Assembly: GCA_965248265.1 (NCBI GenBank)
Contig: CBDFJF010000001.1
Coordinates: forward strand, 2,304,001-2,368,000
Length of the DNA stretch: 64,000 nt
DNA from: Candidatus Latescibacterota bacterium
Lineage (GTDB): Bacteria > Latescibacterota > UBA2968 > UBA8231
Direction: 5' to 3'
The notes below the pieces were generated by a model, which did not search any database, was not told the origin of the DNA, and worked only from the letters and a program-made list of their open reading frames with translations. Made by a program: the position numbers and the translations under genes. Below are positions 24,814 to 61,558 of the stretch, one piece after another (the stretch's first letter is position 1; every line of letters begins with the position of its first letter).

Positions 24814-26547
24814 GTGATCTATCGCGTATTCCCGTTCCTGCTATGGCTGCCCGAACTTCGCAAGGCGTCCATCCTGCGAGGCGACGTGATCGCCGGAATC
24901 ACGGTGGCAGCCGTGCTGATCCCGCAGTCGATGGCCTACGCCAGGTTGGCTGGATTGCCGGCGGTGTTTGGTCTGTACGCCGCCTTCCTGCCGCCTGTGA
25001 TCGCCGGCCTGTTCGGTTCCTCGCGCCAACTGGCCACGGGACCCGTCGCCCTGGTTGCTCTGATCAGTGCCGCGACGGTCGGTAAGATCGCTCCCCCTGG
25101 CTCGGCTGATTTCGTTTCCTATTCCATCCTGCTTGCCCTGATGGTCGGCCTCTTCCGGTTGACACTCGGACTGTTGCGCTTCGGCATGCTCGTCAACCTA
25201 CTGTCCGGTCCGGTCGTCGTCGGCTTCACCAATGCGGCCGCCCTCATCATCGCTTCATCGCAATTGCCGGCGATTCTGGGCGTGGATACCCCACCAGCTG
25301 CTGAGCGCCACCTGCAGATGGTCCTTCAGACGGTGCGCTCGGCTATAGCAGGAGTGCATTGGGCCTCCATCGGCATGGCGACTCTGACTGGCCTCATCCT
25401 GTTGGTGTTGCGTTTCCGATTCGAGAAGATACTGGTGGCCGTTGCCGTGACCACGGCGGTATCCTGGTTTTTCGGGTACCAAGGCGCGGTGGTCGGCAGC
25501 GTGCCCAGCGGTCTGCCCTCCGTAGTGGTACCACACTTTGACGGTGATGTTGCCTCTAGCTTGGCTGTCGGAGCGGCCTTCATCACCATCATCGGCCTGA
25601 TGGAAGCCATGTCAATCGCCAAAAGCATCGCCACCAAAACCCGTCAACAACTCGACGTGAACCAGGAACTGATCGGCCAGGGTTTGTCCAACATCATCGG
25701 AGGTCTGTTCCAGAGTTTTGCCGTCTCCGGATCCTTTTCACGCTCGGCCATCAACTACGAGTCCGGGGCACGCACCGGGTTTGCGACCGTCGTATGCTCA
25801 GGCGTCGTGATGGCTACACTGTTGTTCCTGACACCACTCTTGTATCACCTGCCACAGGCCACGCTCGCCGTCATCATTGTTTTTGCCGTGCTCAGCCTCG
25901 TCCGCCTGGATCCGGTGCTGGTCGCCTGGCGCGTCACTCCCAAGGACGGCGCCATCGCCGTCGTCACCTTCTTGGCCACGCTGGTGCTGGCACCCCAGCT
26001 CCATTTCGGCATCGGCATCGGTGTCAGCCTGACGCTGATTCTGTACCTGCACCGATCGATGCGACCGCACGTGGCCTACCTGTCTCGCCACCCTGACGGT
26101 CCGCTGGTCGATGCCGAAGCCAATGATCTGGCCCTCGACAAGTACATCGCCCTCATCCGCTTCGACGGCCGGCTCTATTTTGGCGACAGCAGCTACTTCG
26201 AGAGCAAGGTCCTAGAAGCGGTCACGCGCCTGCCCGAGCTCGTCTACGTCGTCATCGACGCTGGCAGCATCAACGAGATAGATGCCACCGGCGAACGCAC
26301 CTTGCGCGATACCGTCACCAACCTGCGCGGCGTCGGCATAGACATCTATTTCACTCGAGCCAAGACCCAATTCGTCGACGTGCTGGAACGAACCGGCTGT
26401 CTCGATCACATCGGTAGAGATCATTTTTTCGACTGGAACCAGCATGCCCTTGACCATCTCTGGGAGCAGATGGATCCGGCTAAAAGAACCCGCTCCCCCC
26501 TTCACGTGCCAACCCCCGGGGGCAAGGGTGGCATCTGGGCCATATAG
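24814..26547 (+). CDS. SulP-family anion transporter with STAS domain
   Basis: PQSMAYARLAGLP, GSSRQLATGP and GSFSRS motifs; C-terminal STAS. Confidence 0.93.
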   Translation: MIYRVFPFLLWLPELRKASILRGDVIAGITVAAVLIPQSMAYARLAGLPAVFGLYAAFLPPVIAGLFGSSRQLATGPVALVALISAATVGKIAPPGSADFVSYSILLALMVGLFRLTLGLLRFGMLVNLLSGPVVVGFTNAAALIIASSQLPAILGVDTPPAAERHLQMVLQTVRSAIAGVHWASIGMATLTGLILLVLRFRFEKILVAVAVTTAVSWFFGYQGAVVGSVPSGLPSVVVPHFDGDVASSLAVGAAFITIIGLMEAMSIAKSIATKTRQQLDVNQELIGQGLSNIIGGLFQSFAVSGSFSRSAINYESGARTGFATVVCSGVVMATLLFLTPLLYHLPQATLAVIIVFAVLSLVRLDPVLVAWRVTPKDGAIAVVTFLATLVLAPQLHFGIGIGVSLTLILYLHRSMRPHVAYLSRHPDGPLVDAEANDLALDKYIALIRFDGRLYFGDSSYFESKVLEAVTRLPELVYVVIDAGSINEIDATGERTLRDTVTNLRGVGIDIYFTRAKTQFVDVLERTGCLDHIGRDHFFDWNQHALDHLWEQMDPAKRTRSPLHVPTPGGKGGIWAI

Positions 26548-26697
26548 TCGAACCCGACTCCGATAGACCGGCTCTTGTAGCCGGTGTCGTTTTCCGTACT
26601 TTAGCGACCCGCTGCGACGATCCGCTGTAGCGAGCTGTTTTGTTACGATCTGCCGTTTCGGCTACACCCTTTTCCCTCTCCAGGGAGCACCCCACTC

Positions 26698-27786
26698 GTG
26701 AGCGATTCCGATCAAGGCACAATCCCCGTCTTCATTGGCAGCTACTGTGCCGCTGAAGAAGACGGCGTCTACGTGCACCGCCTGGACATGAGTTCGGGCG
26801 CCCTGGAGCCCGTGAGCGCTATCGGAGGGTTACAGAACCCGAGCTTTCTCGCTCTGCACCCGACCAAGCCGGTGTTGTATGCGGTCATCGAAACCGATGA
26901 AGGTGCGGTTACCGCCCTCTCCTATGACGAGGACTTCGGTCTGACGGCACACAGCAGCTGCTCGACCGGCGGCAGCCCTTGTCATCTTGTCGTAGATGCC
27001 ACGGGTAGGTACGTCCTGGCTGCCAATTACGGTGGCGGCAGCGTCTGCATGATTCCGCTACGCGCTGATGGCAAGGTGGAAGAGGAAGCCAGTGACTTCG
27101 TCCAGCATCAGGGCTCCAGCGTGCATGACCGGCAAACCGAACCCCATGCGCACTCGATCAATATCGATCCTGGAAATCGCTTCGCCCTCGCGGCCGATCT
27201 GGGGCTCGACAAGATCATGATGTATGCGCTCGATTTCGAGGCCGGCAAACTCCGAACACATGCGACCCAGCCGTTCGCCCGGACTCCGAGCGGCGCCGGA
27301 CCCCGGCATCTAGCGTTCTCGCCAAACCGCCAACTGGTTTATGTGATCAATGAAATCGACAACACCATAACGTCGTTCAACTTCGACGAGTCTGGTGCGA
27401 TGGAGACTCTCGAGACCGTCTCTACCCTGCCAGACGACTTCGACGGTGAGAGTGGTACCGCCGATATCCACATCGAGCCCTCAGGCCGTTTTCTCTACGG
27501 CTCGAATCGCGGCCACGACAGCATCGCCATCTACGCCATAGACCCGGACTCCGGGCGGCTGCAGACGCGTGGTCACACACCCACCGGTGGCAAGAATCCT
27601 CGCAGTTTCGGCATCGATCCCACCGGGACGTTTCTGCTGGCTGCGAATCAGAGCACGAACGACATCCACACATTCCGCTTAGACCAGCAAGACGGCAGCC
27701 TGGCGTCGACAGGCCACGTCGTCGAGGTCCCAGCACCGGTTAGCATGCAATTCCACACATCCCCGCGGCCGCCAGACAGGTCGTAA
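26698..27786 (+). CDS. 6-phosphogluconolactonase-family lactonase (beta-propeller)
   Basis: NPSFL, ANYGGG, PHAH, DLGLD, GPRH and SNRGHDSI motifs. Confidence 0.92.
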   Translation: MSDSDQGTIPVFIGSYCAAEEDGVYVHRLDMSSGALEPVSAIGGLQNPSFLALHPTKPVLYAVIETDEGAVTALSYDEDFGLTAHSSCSTGGSPCHLVVDATGRYVLAANYGGGSVCMIPLRADGKVEEEASDFVQHQGSSVHDRQTEPHAHSINIDPGNRFALAADLGLDKIMMYALDFEAGKLRTHATQPFARTPSGAGPRHLAFSPNRQLVYVINEIDNTITSFNFDESGAMETLETVSTLPDDFDGESGTADIHIEPSGRFLYGSNRGHDSIAIYAIDPDSGRLQTRGHTPTGGKNPRSFGIDPTGTFLLAANQSTNDIHTFRLDQQDGSLASTGHVVEVPAPVSMQFHTSPRPPDRS

Positions 27787-27802
27787 CCAGGAGGCAAGAC
27801 CT

Positions 27803-28591
27803 ATCAGACCGAACAAGCTTCGTGAAATGATGAAGGCGGGAACCCCGACCATGGGCACCCACATCCATGCCACCTGGCCGACGGTGACCGAAATCGTCGG
27901 TCATACCGGGGTCTTCGACTACGTCGAGTTCGTCGAGGAGTACGGCCCCTGGGATCTGTTCGCCTTCGACGACATGTGCCGGGCCGCCGAGTTGCACAAG
28001 CTCGGGTCGATGATCAAGGTGGAAGCAGAGGCGCGCGGCTTCATCGCCCAACGAGCCATTGGCTCGGGTTTCGAGAGTGTGTTGTTTTCGGATTGCCGTT
28101 CCGCTGAAGAAGCCCGGGAATGCGTCAACATTTGCCGCGCCGACACGGGCGAGGGTGGGGGCACCTATGGCGTTGCCACGCGGCGCTTCACCTACATGGG
28201 GTACGGAGGCGCCGCCGAGTACGTCGACATGGTAAACGACACCGTCGTCGTGCTGATGATTGAAAAGGCCGGAGCCGTCGAAGAGCTCGATGAGATCCTC
28301 GCCATCGATGGTGTCGACATGATCCAATGGGGGCCGGGCGATTATTCCATGAACACGGGCCGGGCCGGCCAGTACGCCTCACCAGAGATCAAAGCGGTCG
28401 AGCGCGATGTCATCGCCAAGGCCTTGGCCGCCGGCGTACATCCACGCGCCGAGATCAGCACGCCCGACGACGCCAAGTACTACCTCGATCTCGGGGTACG
28501 CCACTTCTGCATGGAAACGGATATCATGATCCTTTTCAACTGGCTCAAGACCAACGGCGAAGAACTCAAAAAAGCACTCGACGGATTATAG
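27803..28591 (+). CDS. HpcH/HpaI-family aldolase; probable non-canonical ATC start
   Basis: EYGP, MIEK and WGPGDYS motifs. AGGAGG at 27789-27794, then 8 nt, then in-frame ATC-AGA-CCG-AAC-AAG-CTT-CGT-GAA (MRPNKLRE). First ATG is at 27827. Confidence 0.85.
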   Translation: MRPNKLREMMKAGTPTMGTHIHATWPTVTEIVGHTGVFDYVEFVEEYGPWDLFAFDDMCRAAELHKLGSMIKVEAEARGFIAQRAIGSGFESVLFSDCRSAEEARECVNICRADTGEGGGTYGVATRRFTYMGYGGAAEYVDMVNDTVVVLMIEKAGAVEELDEILAIDGVDMIQWGPGDYSMNTGRAGQYASPEIKAVERDVIAKALAAGVHPRAEISTPDDAKYYLDLGVRHFCMETDIMILFNWLKTNGEELKKALDGL

Positions 28592-28685
28592 AAGCTCGTT
28601 GATAGACGGGTTGCTCCGCGCGGACGCACCGACGCCAATGTCTGATTAACCCCAACCAGCGTATGAGCAGGGCGAGTGAGGCCGA

Positions 28686-29720
28686 ATGAACGAAATCGCG
28701 ACCAGAAAAGTCGGCAAATCAAATCAGTCCGTTACCGAGCTGGGTTTCGGTACAGCCCCGCTTGGAGACCTGTTCGTCCACATCCCTGAAGTGGATGCCC
28801 AGCAGATCCTGCAGGCGGCCTGGGATGGCGGCATCCGTTACTACGACACATCACCGTTCTACGGCTATGGCAAGTCCGAGCACCGGCTGGGCACCTTTCT
28901 CCGGCAACAGCCGCGGGACGAATTCGTTGTCTCAACCAAAGTCGGCCGCGTGTTCCGGGCGCCAGCAGACCCACGCCAGGTCGATCCCACCTTCTGGGCT
29001 GATCCGCTGCCGTTCGATTTCTCCTTCGACTACAGCTACGATGGCATCATGCGGTCCTTCGAGGACAGTCTGCAACGGCTCAGCCTGAACCGCGTCGACA
29101 TGTTGCTGATCCACGATCTCGATGACCTGTTCCATCTATCAGAAGAAGCCATCGCCGCCTGCCTGGCGCAGCTCTACAGCAGTGGTTGGCGCGCCCTGGA
29201 TGAGATGCGACGTGGTGGCGTCATTCAGGCCATCGGCGCCGGCATCAATCGCGCCCACATGATGCCGCGTTTTCTGGATCTCGTCGACCTCGACTTCTTC
29301 ATCGTGGCGATGCCCTATACCCTGCTCGATCAGGAGGTACTGGATGGGATTTTTCCACGCTGCCAGGAAGAGAACGTCGGCGTTGTCGTGGGTGCTCCCT
29401 TCGCCTCGGGCATCCTTGCCACAGGCCCGACTGCGGATGCGCGTTATGCCTACGAACCGGCAACCGAAGACATCCTGGAGAAAACACGCCGGATCCAGAC
29501 GCTATGCCAGCGGCACGACACACCCCTGGCTGCAGCGGCCCTGCAATTCCCACTTGCCCACCCGTTGGTCGCGGCGATCATTCCGGGCGCGCTGGAGGCC
29601 GGGCACGTAACTGCCAATGTGGACTGGGTCGACCGCGAGATCCCGAGTGCCCTGTGGTCGGAGCTGAAATCGGAGGGATTGATCCGGGAGGATGCGCCCT
29701 CGCCGAAACTGGGCGTGTGA
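28686..29720 (+). CDS. Aldo/keto reductase (D-threo-aldose dehydrogenase-like)
   Basis: GFGTAPLG, DTSPFYG, STKVGR, DYSYDG and IHD motifs. Confidence 0.9.
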   Translation: MNEIATRKVGKSNQSVTELGFGTAPLGDLFVHIPEVDAQQILQAAWDGGIRYYDTSPFYGYGKSEHRLGTFLRQQPRDEFVVSTKVGRVFRAPADPRQVDPTFWADPLPFDFSFDYSYDGIMRSFEDSLQRLSLNRVDMLLIHDLDDLFHLSEEAIAACLAQLYSSGWRALDEMRRGGVIQAIGAGINRAHMMPRFLDLVDLDFFIVAMPYTLLDQEVLDGIFPRCQEENVGVVVGAPFASGILATGPTADARYAYEPATEDILEKTRRIQTLCQRHDTPLAAAALQFPLAHPLVAAIIPGALEAGHVTANVDWVDREIPSALWSELKSEGLIREDAPSPKLGV

Positions 29721-29730
29721 GCGTGCCGCT

Positions 29731-30342
29731 TCAGCCCAAAAGCAAGAACGCGGCGAACATCGACAGCCACACCAATTCCAGAAAATGCCAGTACGTAGCG
29801 CACCCGCGCACGTCATACAGGTGCCGCGATGTCATCTGATGTTTCCAGGCCTGTACGGCTAACATGTTCAGGGGAATCAGGCCGCCAATGATGTGAGCTG
29901 CGTGGATCAGCATCAGCACCAGGGTCAGACCGTAGACGCCAATGTCATGGGTCTGCAAAGCTTCGTTGTGCTGTCCCAACAGCTGGGACATGGCCGCTGC
30001 TTGGGTGATCACGAACGCGATTGACAGACCTGAAGCTGCCAGCAATGCTCTCCGTTGGTCAATGAAACCCCACCTTCCTCGTTGCGCCGCCACTTCGATG
30101 GCAATGCCGGCGAACAACAACAGCAGAGTGGAAAACCAGGAGATCGCCGGCAAACTGGCCGCCGATTGGCCTATCGAGGGGGGTCGCGACAGACTGGTCA
30201 ACACATAGACCACCATGCTGCCGGTGAAAAACACGCCGAGAGATACCAAGAAAAGACGCAGGCCGAAACGGCGCATGGTAGTCGTCCGCGGAAGCTGTAC
30301 TGCCTCGTCCCAAGCTTCATCGTGTAGGCTTGATTTCTTCAC
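29731..30342 (-). CDS. Stand-alone cytochrome c oxidase subunit III-like membrane protein
   Basis: Five TM helices with HAAHIIGG and YWHFLELVW motifs. Confidence 0.82.
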
Positions 30343-60601: not shown

Positions 60602-60670
60602 TGGTAGAGGAATGGAGAAATCGCCTCGTCGTACACGCTTCTGCCGGCACCTATTGGGGGCCATCGCTTT

Positions 60671-61558
60671 ATGAGAGCACAAAAATCAGACACCGCGGCC
60701 GCGAAGGCGGAGCGGAGCACGGATCTGGATTTACACAACCGGAACATGACGGATCTGTATTGGAGGGACATCAGGCACTCCAAACCGCTCAGCCGCAAGG
60801 AAGAGGTCCGCCTGTTCAAGCTGGCGAAGGCCGGAGATGAGGAGTCCAGACAGACCATCATCACCGCCAACTTACGCTTCGTCGTCAGCGTGGCGAGGGA
60901 GTACAAGGACTACGGTATGTCGTTGTCCGAGTTGATCTCCGAAGGCAACGTCGGCCTGCTGGAGGCCACCAAGCGCTTCGACGAAGACCGAGGCTTCAAG
61001 TTCATCACCTATGCAGTGTGGTGGATCCGACAGGCCATCCTGAAAGCGTTGGCCGAGCACGGGAAGATCGCCCGGCCGCCCATGAGCCAGATCAACGATC
61101 TCCAGCGGTTGGAGAAGGAATCCAATGCCCTGGCCCAGAGGCTGGGTCGGGATCCTACCTTTGGAGAAATCGCCACCAGTATCGACATCAGTGCTCTGCG
61201 CACGCGCAATGCCATGGAAGTGGGCCAAACCGATGTCTCTTTCGATGCCCCGACTTACCAGGATGAGGAAACCACACTTCATTCGGTTTACGCCGCCGAC
61301 GAGGATGGTATTGACGAGGCCTTCGAGGATGGTGAGATGCGTGGCACCGTGAACGACTGCCTCGGCGTGCTCGACGACCGCGAGTACCAGATCGTCCGCT
61401 GTTATTACGGCCTGGAGAGCATGCAACCGATGACGCTGGAGGAAATTGGCAACGCTCTGGGCGTGACCCGCGAGCGAGTGCGGCAGTTGCGCAATCGGGC
61501 GATTGACAAGTTGCGTTCTAACTGTGGAGAACTGCTGGCGGAGTTTTCGAAAAACTAA
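60671..61558 (+). CDS. Short RpoD/SigA-family sigma70 factor (no region 1.1)
   Basis: ANLRFVVSVA, GFKFITYAVWWIRQAI and TLEEIG...TRERVRQL motifs. Confidence 0.93.
   Translation: MRAQKSDTAAAKAERSTDLDLHNRNMTDLYWRDIRHSKPLSRKEEVRLFKLAKAGDEESRQTIITANLRFVVSVAREYKDYGMSLSELISEGNVGLLEATKRFDEDRGFKFITYAVWWIRQAILKALAEHGKIARPPMSQINDLQRLEKESNALAQRLGRDPTFGEIATSIDISALRTRNAMEVGQTDVSFDAPTYQDEETTLHSVYAADEDGIDEAFEDGEMRGTVNDCLGVLDDREYQIVRCYYGLESMQPMTLEEIGNALGVTRERVRQLRNRAIDKLRSNCGELLAEFSKN

Follow-up and report, generated by a model that had tools for sequence, protein, structure and literature searches.

The gene considered here encodes a sugar-acid aldolase of the HpcH/HpaI family and lies in a 64,000-nucleotide (nt) stretch of the genome of a Candidatus Latescibacterota bacterium (assembly GCA_965248265.1, contig CBDFJF010000001.1, positions 2,304,001 to 2,368,000; hereafter the window, to which all plain coordinates below refer). 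The comparative evidence argues, with a probability put at roughly 85%, that this gene is translated from an AUC codon at 27803..27805 (+) and that the codon is a genuine, conserved start. The coding sequence would then occupy 27803..28591 (+), i.e., 262 codons followed by the stop TAG at 28589-28591. The ATC is preceded by the Shine–Dalgarno (SD) sequence AGGAGG (27789..27794, +), from which it is separated by a spacer of 8 nt (caagacct), and the codons that follow it (AGA CCG AAC AAG CTT CGT GAA ATG ATG AAG GCG GGA) are read as (I)RPNKLREMMKAG in a frame continuous with the open reading frame (ORF) ending at 28591. This frame is open for 41 codons 5' of the ATC, a stretch harboring no ATG, GTG or TTG. 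The first canonical start in the frame is the ATG of codon 9 (27827..27829, +), the choice of a standard gene caller, and neither GGAG nor GAGG nor AGGA occurs in the 22 nt before it. Just this arrangement (AGGAGG, 8 nt, an in-frame ATC and a first ATG devoid of an SD sequence) had been described in a first-pass annotation made from the letters of the window, and both the sequence and the reading of the ORFs bear the description out.

The motif as such is not what singles this codon out. The pattern GGAGG-N8-ATC is encountered seven times in the window versus 3.28 ± 1.82 times in shuffled sequences, and 7 of 100 shuffles reach seven matches; since the bare motif is not unusual, the case for 27803 rests on homology. 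Among the seven matches, only that at 27803 heads a long ORF lacking an upstream canonical start, and it is distinguished by its alignment with Met1 of the homologues and by its conservation. The surroundings contribute no RNA element of their own: no Rfam family was detected within 26000-30000 at E up to 0.1, and the predicted fold of 27765-27845 is unremarkable (z -0.70).

The search of public proteins with the ATC-initiated sequence as a query returned 2152 matches, of which the best 120 were listed and underlie the statements on public proteins made here. Most of the listed matches are 261-262 amino acids (aa) long, with 99-100% of the query covered, and the N-termini of these 261-262-aa proteins (MRPNKLRE, MRPNTFRE or MRANKFRE) coincide residue for residue with the query if the ATC is taken as Met1. 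The N-terminus MRxNxLRE with the ATC at the Met position, which the first-pass annotation had given for this subfamily, is therefore what the homologues display, and the alignments named there as the arbiter between 27803 and 27827 place the start at the former. The assignment to the family is supported by the PF03328 profile score of 59.1 bits (curated cutoff 25; E 5.1e-16) and by nine solved HpcH/HpaI family members matching the aldolase at E 2.4e-13 or better. Residue 3 of HpaI, residue 6 of GarL and residue 7 of YfaU align with the query residues 4, 2 and 4, respectively, i.e., the N-terminus is co-linear with those of the solved proteins. In the low-identity alignment with HpaI, the Glu of ‘..IE..’ and the Asp of ‘GP.D’, which we take to be the metal-binding residues, are kept, and a Lys is located opposite the Arg of ‘VVRP’, presumably the catalytic one. 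The best named match comes from a metagenome-assembled genome of Candidatus Poribacteria (66% identity), and it nests among the orthologues of the family in the tree.

The public gene calls are informative in their own right. Among the listed matches, the closest relatives (84-96% identity) have been called short, at 253, 254, 246 or 247 aa, from the ATG of codon 9 or from a later codon; over the whole range of short calls in the closest relatives (253, 254, 246, 247 and 222 aa), 8-40 residues are lost. Another five of the listed relatives, about 68-69% identical, have been called long (274-306 aa) and read ...TTIRPNK, ...SAIRPNK, ...DTIRPNK, ...AIIQPNK and ...ATIQPNK, with Ile at the position of Met1 in all five. 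Such short calls, and long ones with Ile at this position, are the signature of gene callers meeting a non-canonical start. The expectation that standard annotation would truncate such genes has thus come true, with the public calls either truncating or over-extending the AUC-started proteins.

Among 30 loci of related genomes, the position of Met1 is occupied by ATC in 8, ATG in 10, TTG in 9 and GTG in 3 cases. The eight ATC loci belong to eight genera of the window's own family (f1); TTG and GTG are limited to a single genus of a second family, and the nine named genomes of other phyla all possess ATG. The 37 metagenome loci covering the N-terminus include 31 with ATG, 3 with TTG and 3 with ATC, the latter being 90%, 90% and 77% identical to the window. 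All ATC-bearing relatives, genomes and metagenome contigs alike, possess GGAG(G) at 5-9 nt 5' of the ATC. In the maximum-likelihood tree, seven ATC genes form one clade (support 99/83) with an adjoining clade of four ATG genes, and one more ATC gene (G015) stands apart; in a quick tree, L143, a marine contig that is 82% identical to the window and bears ATG, falls within the ATC clade (supports 0.989 and 0.997). The claim that AUC initiation is shared lineage-wide holds for the aldolase (eight genera) and for infC (see below) and is not supported as a general feature of start selection.

Ten distinct ATC genes were compared with respect to the starts available to them. The next in-frame canonical start in these genes is codon 9, 37, 6, 21, 29, 29, 9, 70, 9 or 41, and five of the ten lack an upstream in-frame canonical start before the stop. 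Codons 2-8 keep the pattern R/K-P-N-K-L/F/M-R, with the Pro, Leu and Arg codons varying synonymously among the ATC genes. Since in most ATC relatives the next canonical start lies 20-69 codons downstream and codons 2-8 are conserved as protein, AUC appears to be the real start. The whole-gene ratio of nonsynonymous to synonymous substitutions (dN/dS) is 0.06-0.37 relative to the window gene at a dS of 0.84 to 2.1 (one pair was too saturated to compute), therefore the third base of the start codon has stayed C while the synonymous sites have been largely replaced.

It can be argued that translation begins at ATG 27827, the conserved ATC being an untranslated leftover or the gene being in decay: this genome, like L141 and L142, possesses an ATG at codon 9, and gene callers choose it. 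This explanation is very improbable in view of the lack of an SD sequence before ATG 27827, the strong SD sequence spaced for ATC 27803 and not for that ATG, the maintenance of codons 2-8 as protein across genera, and the position of the next canonical start at codon 21-70, inside the barrel, in six of the ten ATC genes; the low dN/dS, in turn, speaks against decay of the aldolase.

A trivial explanation of the unusual codon would be a sequencing or assembly error concealing a true ATG, and the assembly, holding many ORFs that resemble fragments of longer genes, is indeed not error-free. Nevertheless, the same ATC occurs in seven other genomes and in three metagenome contigs. Contigs built from public reads of what is probably the source sample display 0 differences over 27500-28300, and a strain from a second study (about 96% identical, one contig) displays 30, including 27789 A>T, 27795 C>T and 27841 A>T, with no listed difference at 27803-27805; the latter comparison is based on the listed differences, 26 weakly supported rows being outside the listing. 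The agreement of eight genomes and of read contigs from two studies excludes a sequencing artefact, so that the probability left to an error is practically negligible. The first-pass annotation had argued against a G-to-C error and proposed to look for ATG in the reads; the relatives' loci, the metagenome contigs and the contigs of assembled reads agree with its view.

The aldolase gene is preceded on the same strand by a gene for a lactonase with a 7-bladed beta-propeller (26698..27786, +; 362 aa; PF10282, E 1.4e-110), whose stop codon TAA (27784-27786) is 16 nt away from ATC 27803, and followed by a gene for an aldo/keto reductase (28686..29720, +; 344 aa; PF00248, E 6.4e-47). A lactonase homologue is situated directly upstream of the aldolase in 10 of the 11 ATC loci versus none of the 32 other (ATG, GTG or TTG) loci; the eleventh (L004) has another ORF ending 4-35 nt upstream instead. 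The distance between the upstream stop and the ATC amounts to 41-71 nt in five genome relatives and to 176 nt in L012, the only exception among the ten other ATC loci, nine of which have an upstream stop 4-71 nt before the ATC. In the ATG-bearing members of the family, the nearest upstream ORF on the same strand ends 57-252 nt away, and the ATG-bearing L143 has no lactonase within its 241 upstream nt. The lactonase neighbor of the ATC loci suggests that the weak start is used in translational coupling.

Under the proposed mechanism, the 30S subunit would be held by the strong pairing of AGGAGG with the anti-SD, and the ordinary fMet-tRNA (CAU) would read AUC with a third-position mismatch, giving a protein that begins with Met. 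Initiation at this codon would be weak (about 1-3% of AUG), as in E. coli reporters, where AUA, AUC, AUU and CUG are reported to operate at 1-2% of AUG and the product of AUC carries an N-terminal Met (bioRxiv 10.1101/063800), and it would be opposed by initiation factor 3 (IF3). Since 16 nt separate the lactonase stop from the ATC, and 4-71 nt separate an upstream stop from it in most ATC relatives, ribosomes finishing the lactonase gene probably supply a part of the aldolase initiation. Owing to the weak codon, the output of the aldolase would then be low and fixed relative to that of the lactonase.

One may go further and suppose that AUC is used only by ribosomes that reinitiate after the lactonase stop upon capture by the SD sequence, with negligible de novo initiation and a strict dependence on the translation of the lactonase. 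The stop distances and the lactonase neighborhood described above favor this possibility, as do the other ATC starts of this genome, which follow an upstream stop by 0-9 nt (9 in an oxidoreductase gene, 4 in an HpcH paralogue and 0-3 in xseB; see below); in E. coli, about 40-50% reinitiation has been reported at short gaps, about 40% of the initiation at a 20-nt gap being reinitiation (PMC3592434). At the same time, a strong SD sequence would support de novo initiation as well, L012 keeps its ATC at 176 nt, and the proximity of a stop is weakly informative given that most operon-internal genes are near an upstream stop anyway. Such a strict dependence is therefore possible yet doubtful, and a start at AUC 27803 served in part by terminating ribosomes is preferred.

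Several considerations weigh against the AUC start and its proposed mode of operation. ATG is tolerated at the start position, judging from the sister clade of four genomes and from the nested L143, therefore AUC is not essential to the enzyme. ATC accounts for 74% of the Ile codons in this genome, hence base composition may explain why the third base is C rather than T or A. The ATG of codon 9, here and in the 90%-identical relatives, could give a protein 8 residues shorter, and both starts could be in use here. The link of ATC to the lactonase comes down to about three contrasts on the phylogeny, and common ancestry rather than mechanism may account for it. Finally, that AUC is weak and sensitive to IF3 is extrapolated from E. 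coli and Streptomyces.

The initiation machinery of the organism appears ordinary. The genome encodes one canonical initiator tRNA (anticodon CAU, GGG:CCC stem, position 1 unpaired), the sole tRNA with the anticodon GAU is an ordinary elongator, and the tRNA set of the genome contains no initiator-like tRNA reading AUC. The 3' end of the 16S rRNA is standard as well (...GGATCACCTCCTT). A second initiator-like tRNA-CAU (G000:C1:1584226-1584300, -), with position 1 unpaired, two G-C pairs only at the bottom of its anticodon stem and a short D-loop, was found in this genome alone among the 41 genomes searched, therefore it does not explain a trait shared by eight genera. Thus, the initiator tRNA, whose inspection was proposed in the first-pass annotation, is a standard CAU initiator, and the inspection of infC, also proposed there, revealed a start at AUC. 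Since infC itself uses AUC, IF3 likely still discriminates against this codon, as can be deduced from the work on E. coli and Streptomyces. Among other tRNA calls, the Aragorn list for this genome (G000) includes a tRNA-Sec and a tRNA of type ‘???’ whose anticodon call comprises four bases (ttct).

The infC gene (G000:C2:3116092-3116610, +) is outside the window. Its ATC is located behind AAGGAGG and 38 codons ahead of the next ATG, and the IF3_N domain begins from residue 11. The SD sequence with ATC is present in all 24 loci of the family f1 covering the N-terminus, and in the five loci shown for the second family an in-frame ATC follows GGAGG by 7-8 nt, so the arrangement is probably kept in the second family too; therefore, AUC, not AUU, would be the IF3 start codon of this class.

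Two genes of catabolic type feature the same kind of start. In the gene for a GFO/IDH/MocA oxidoreductase (G000:C2:2486239-2487465, +), the ATC comes 9 nt after the TGA of an MlrC-like gene and aligns with the ATG of 50%-identical orthologues; the Rossmann domain begins from residue 5 and the next GTG is 35 codons downstream, so that a call limited to canonical starts loses the Rossmann motif. In the gene for a second HpcH aldolase (G000:C1:1538217-1538987, -), the ATC comes 4 nt after the TAG of a hydantoinase-B gene; the SD sequence with ATC is found in five of eight genera, and the other three possess an ATG three codons later. The recurrence of AUC as a start within this genome, surmised from the window, is thus substantiated by infC, the oxidoreductase and the second aldolase. 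To this group, xseB (G000:C2 about 689976-690275, -) can be added with less certainty as to the codon: it reads AGGAGG TGA ATC CTG with no canonical start before the conserved N-terminus, and so starts at ATC or CTG, 0-3 nt after the upstream stop.

Other genes came to notice in the same survey. The membrane protein g363 (G000:C1:1336659-1336830, +) probably has a CTG start behind GGAG and 7 nt. In the MATE transporter g1772 (G000:C2 about 3705831-3705966, -), sequence conservation extends 5' of the first GTG, and its start must be ATC or CTG. In nusB (G000:C1:2683881-2684469, +), the domain begins 36 codons 5' of the first canonical start and an out-of-frame ATG is nearby, indicating either a non-canonical start or an assembly frameshift. 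A further conserved stretch precedes the ATG of g3191 (C2, +): the 12 codons separating it from the upstream stop are kept in the G017 counterpart (TCSSSIARNEVA vs. TCSSSTGRSEAV), the two genomes being of very different GC content; this stretch may represent a conserved leader or a regulatory element.

The first-pass annotation had spoken of a second AUC start in the window; another one was not identified there. The best candidate, ATC 60620 in a sigma-70 family gene (60620-61555, +), is preceded by AGAGGA and 8 nt and is situated 17 codons before the first ATG. The N-terminus that it would create is conserved in no relative: relatives match only from query residue 12-45 onward, therefore a start at this ATC is not supported.

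A broader claim was that start-codon selection is relaxed across the organism or its lineage, with wide use of AUC and other near-cognate codons and many genes mis-called. What speaks for it is the presence of at least four genes starting at ATC in this genome, together with the start of xseB at ATC or CTG, the probable CTG of g363, the ATC or CTG of the MATE transporter and the abundance of GTG and TTG starts. The claim was examined with a crude gene set for the 7.32-Mb genome, comprising 5324 ORFs selected by codon-usage score (86% of the DNA). In this genome, a GGAG peak is seen 5-10 nt before ATG starts; accordingly, in-frame codons preceding the first canonical start by 4 codons or more were scanned for SD sequences at a working spacing. 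GGAG precedes 24 of 941 ATC codons (2.55%) compared with 1946 of 65946 codons overall (2.95%); the stronger GGAGG or AGGAG precedes 18 of 941 (1.9%), compared with a mean of 1.3% (about 12.5 expected), ranking ATC 5th among 58 codons. Hence, this genome scan, of the kind proposed in the first-pass annotation, reveals no clear excess of SD-preceded ATC codons upstream of first canonical starts. As for GTG and TTG, 893 genes with exactly one canonical candidate behind a strong SD sequence include 653 with ATG, 162 with GTG and 78 with TTG (27% for the latter two together). These starts, called frequent in the first-pass annotation, are thus moderately common.

The individual sites lead to a similar picture. 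The 21 sites of ATC behind an SD sequence that were assessed by Pfam or relatives (Pfam boundaries were available for 20 of 24) include four real starts, i.e., the window aldolase, infC, the oxidoreductase and the second HpcH aldolase, and at least nine without need of ATC (PtsI, YchF, Era, GT4, PEP mutase, an enolase-family gene, a beta-lactamase-family gene and two ORF fragments). The sites L041, L042, L046, L048, L052, L055, L058 and L060 are outside either class, and C2:2405542 was left out. As a control, 20 of 22 strong-SD ATT, ATA or CTG sites were considered, among which only xseB clearly needs a non-canonical start and nusB possibly does.

An estimate independent of SD sequences was obtained by comparing the 5324 ORFs, translated from stop to stop, with 1.6 Mb of a genome of the same family (GC content 68.8% vs. 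59.6%), yielding 2064 ORFs with a match and 917 orthologue-like pairs. Apparent upstream BLAST extensions, seen in 117 of the 917 pairs, were mostly low-complexity over-extension or ORF fragments matching the middle of longer proteins, and were filtered by rescoring of the conserved suffix and by inspection by eye. About 3 of the 917 pairs (~0.3%) turned out to need a non-canonical start, namely infC (ATC in both genomes), the MATE transporter and the membrane protein; the figure is rough, as the classification was manual and the gene set crude. Many ORFs (e.g., g3508, g5035, g3979, g5052, g4424, g5255, g4356, g4869 and g75) correspond only to a middle or C-terminal portion of longer proteins in a relative; these are split genes, resulting from pseudogenisation or from assembly indel errors.

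Together with the standard initiator tRNA and anti-SD and with infC, whose AUC, kept across the class, makes sense only if IF3 discriminates against AUC, these figures make a relaxed start-codon selection quite improbable. AUC is rather the usual non-canonical start of this lineage, used in infC everywhere and in a few catabolic genes at operon junctions, and not a consequence of lax selection. It is tempting to regard it as a ‘coupling’ start placed behind an upstream stop and a strong SD sequence, such that certain enzymes (the two HpcH aldolases, the oxidoreductase and perhaps xseB) would owe their synthesis mainly to reinitiating ribosomes, in a low, fixed proportion, and would increase when IF3 is scarce; we deem this unlikely. 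If it were true, infC and a small, IF3-sensed regulon of sugar-acid catabolism would have the AUC codon in common, and the return to ATG upon loss of the upstream neighbor, seen in about three contrasts of the tree, would be its evolutionary signature.

Non-canonical starts of bacterial genes offer several parallels. The infC gene starts at AUU in E. coli and at AUA in Deinococcus and Thermus, and its weak start serves the autoregulation of IF3. The aldolase resembles infC in possessing a near-cognate AUH codon behind an SD sequence that is conserved in relatives and routinely mis-annotated, the more so as the lineage's own infC uses AUC; it differs in being a catabolic gene with no known link to IF3 and with ATG in sister lineages. 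To our knowledge, pcnB, another gene with a near-cognate start, is not located at an operon junction behind a strong SD sequence. The AUU start of pcnB in E. coli (Binns and Masters 2002, as cited in PMC2830850 and PMC3592434) is, according to these accounts, an inefficient start limiting the amount of an ordinary enzyme, much as AUC would be in the aldolase, the codons being different. In Deinococcus, the ATC start of dnaA, found by N-terminal proteomics with a labelled N-terminal peptide, is described as conserved among related species and as restoring an N-terminus missed by annotation (Baudet et al., PMC2830850); likewise for the aldolase, but the dnaA start is proven by a peptide, whereas that of the aldolase is proposed from comparison.

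In Streptomyces, infC is reported to start at ATC, with IF3 repressing non-canonical starts, and the GTC start of sigR to be conserved, misannotated in all genomes and dependent on IF3 by experiment (PMC5472188). The aldolase shares with sigR, as presented in that paper, the conservation and the misannotation; unlike it, sigR is a regulator gene with an experimentally shown IF3 dependence, whereas the case of the aldolase is built from sequence. Non-ATG starts are also described for regulators of sugar utilisation in Enterobacteriaceae, e.g., the GTG of lacI (PMC11445065), where a weaker start codon tunes expression within a carbohydrate pathway, as AUC would in the case of the aldolase; there, it is a canonical alternative in a repressor, in contrast to the near-cognate codon in an enzyme considered here. 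The aldolase displays the features of a near-cognate start, namely the absence of ATG, GTG or TTG at the conserved N-terminus, an appropriate SD spacing and a codon kept despite saturated synonymous sites. On comparative grounds, it appears to share the defining features of the group comprising infC, pcnB and dnaA. The library searched for literature yielded no paper bringing together any two of the subjects Poribacteria, HpcH, ATC start codon and non-canonical start.

Overall, the main value of the finding is in annotation, since public records of the aldolase are wrong at the N-terminus in both directions, and callers limited to ATG, GTG and TTG would cut infC, the oxidoreductase and the second aldolase by 38, 35 and 28 codons, respectively. 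The present knowledge of the initiation machinery is left unchanged by it. Beyond annotation, it serves as a tidy comparative illustration of start-codon tuning: the gene of a catabolic enzyme has retained a weak near-cognate start, tied to an operon junction, while its synonymous sites became saturated, which makes a clean comparative case. As such, it lends itself to testing how the strength of a start codon, together with translational coupling, may determine enzyme ratios in an uncultured marine lineage.

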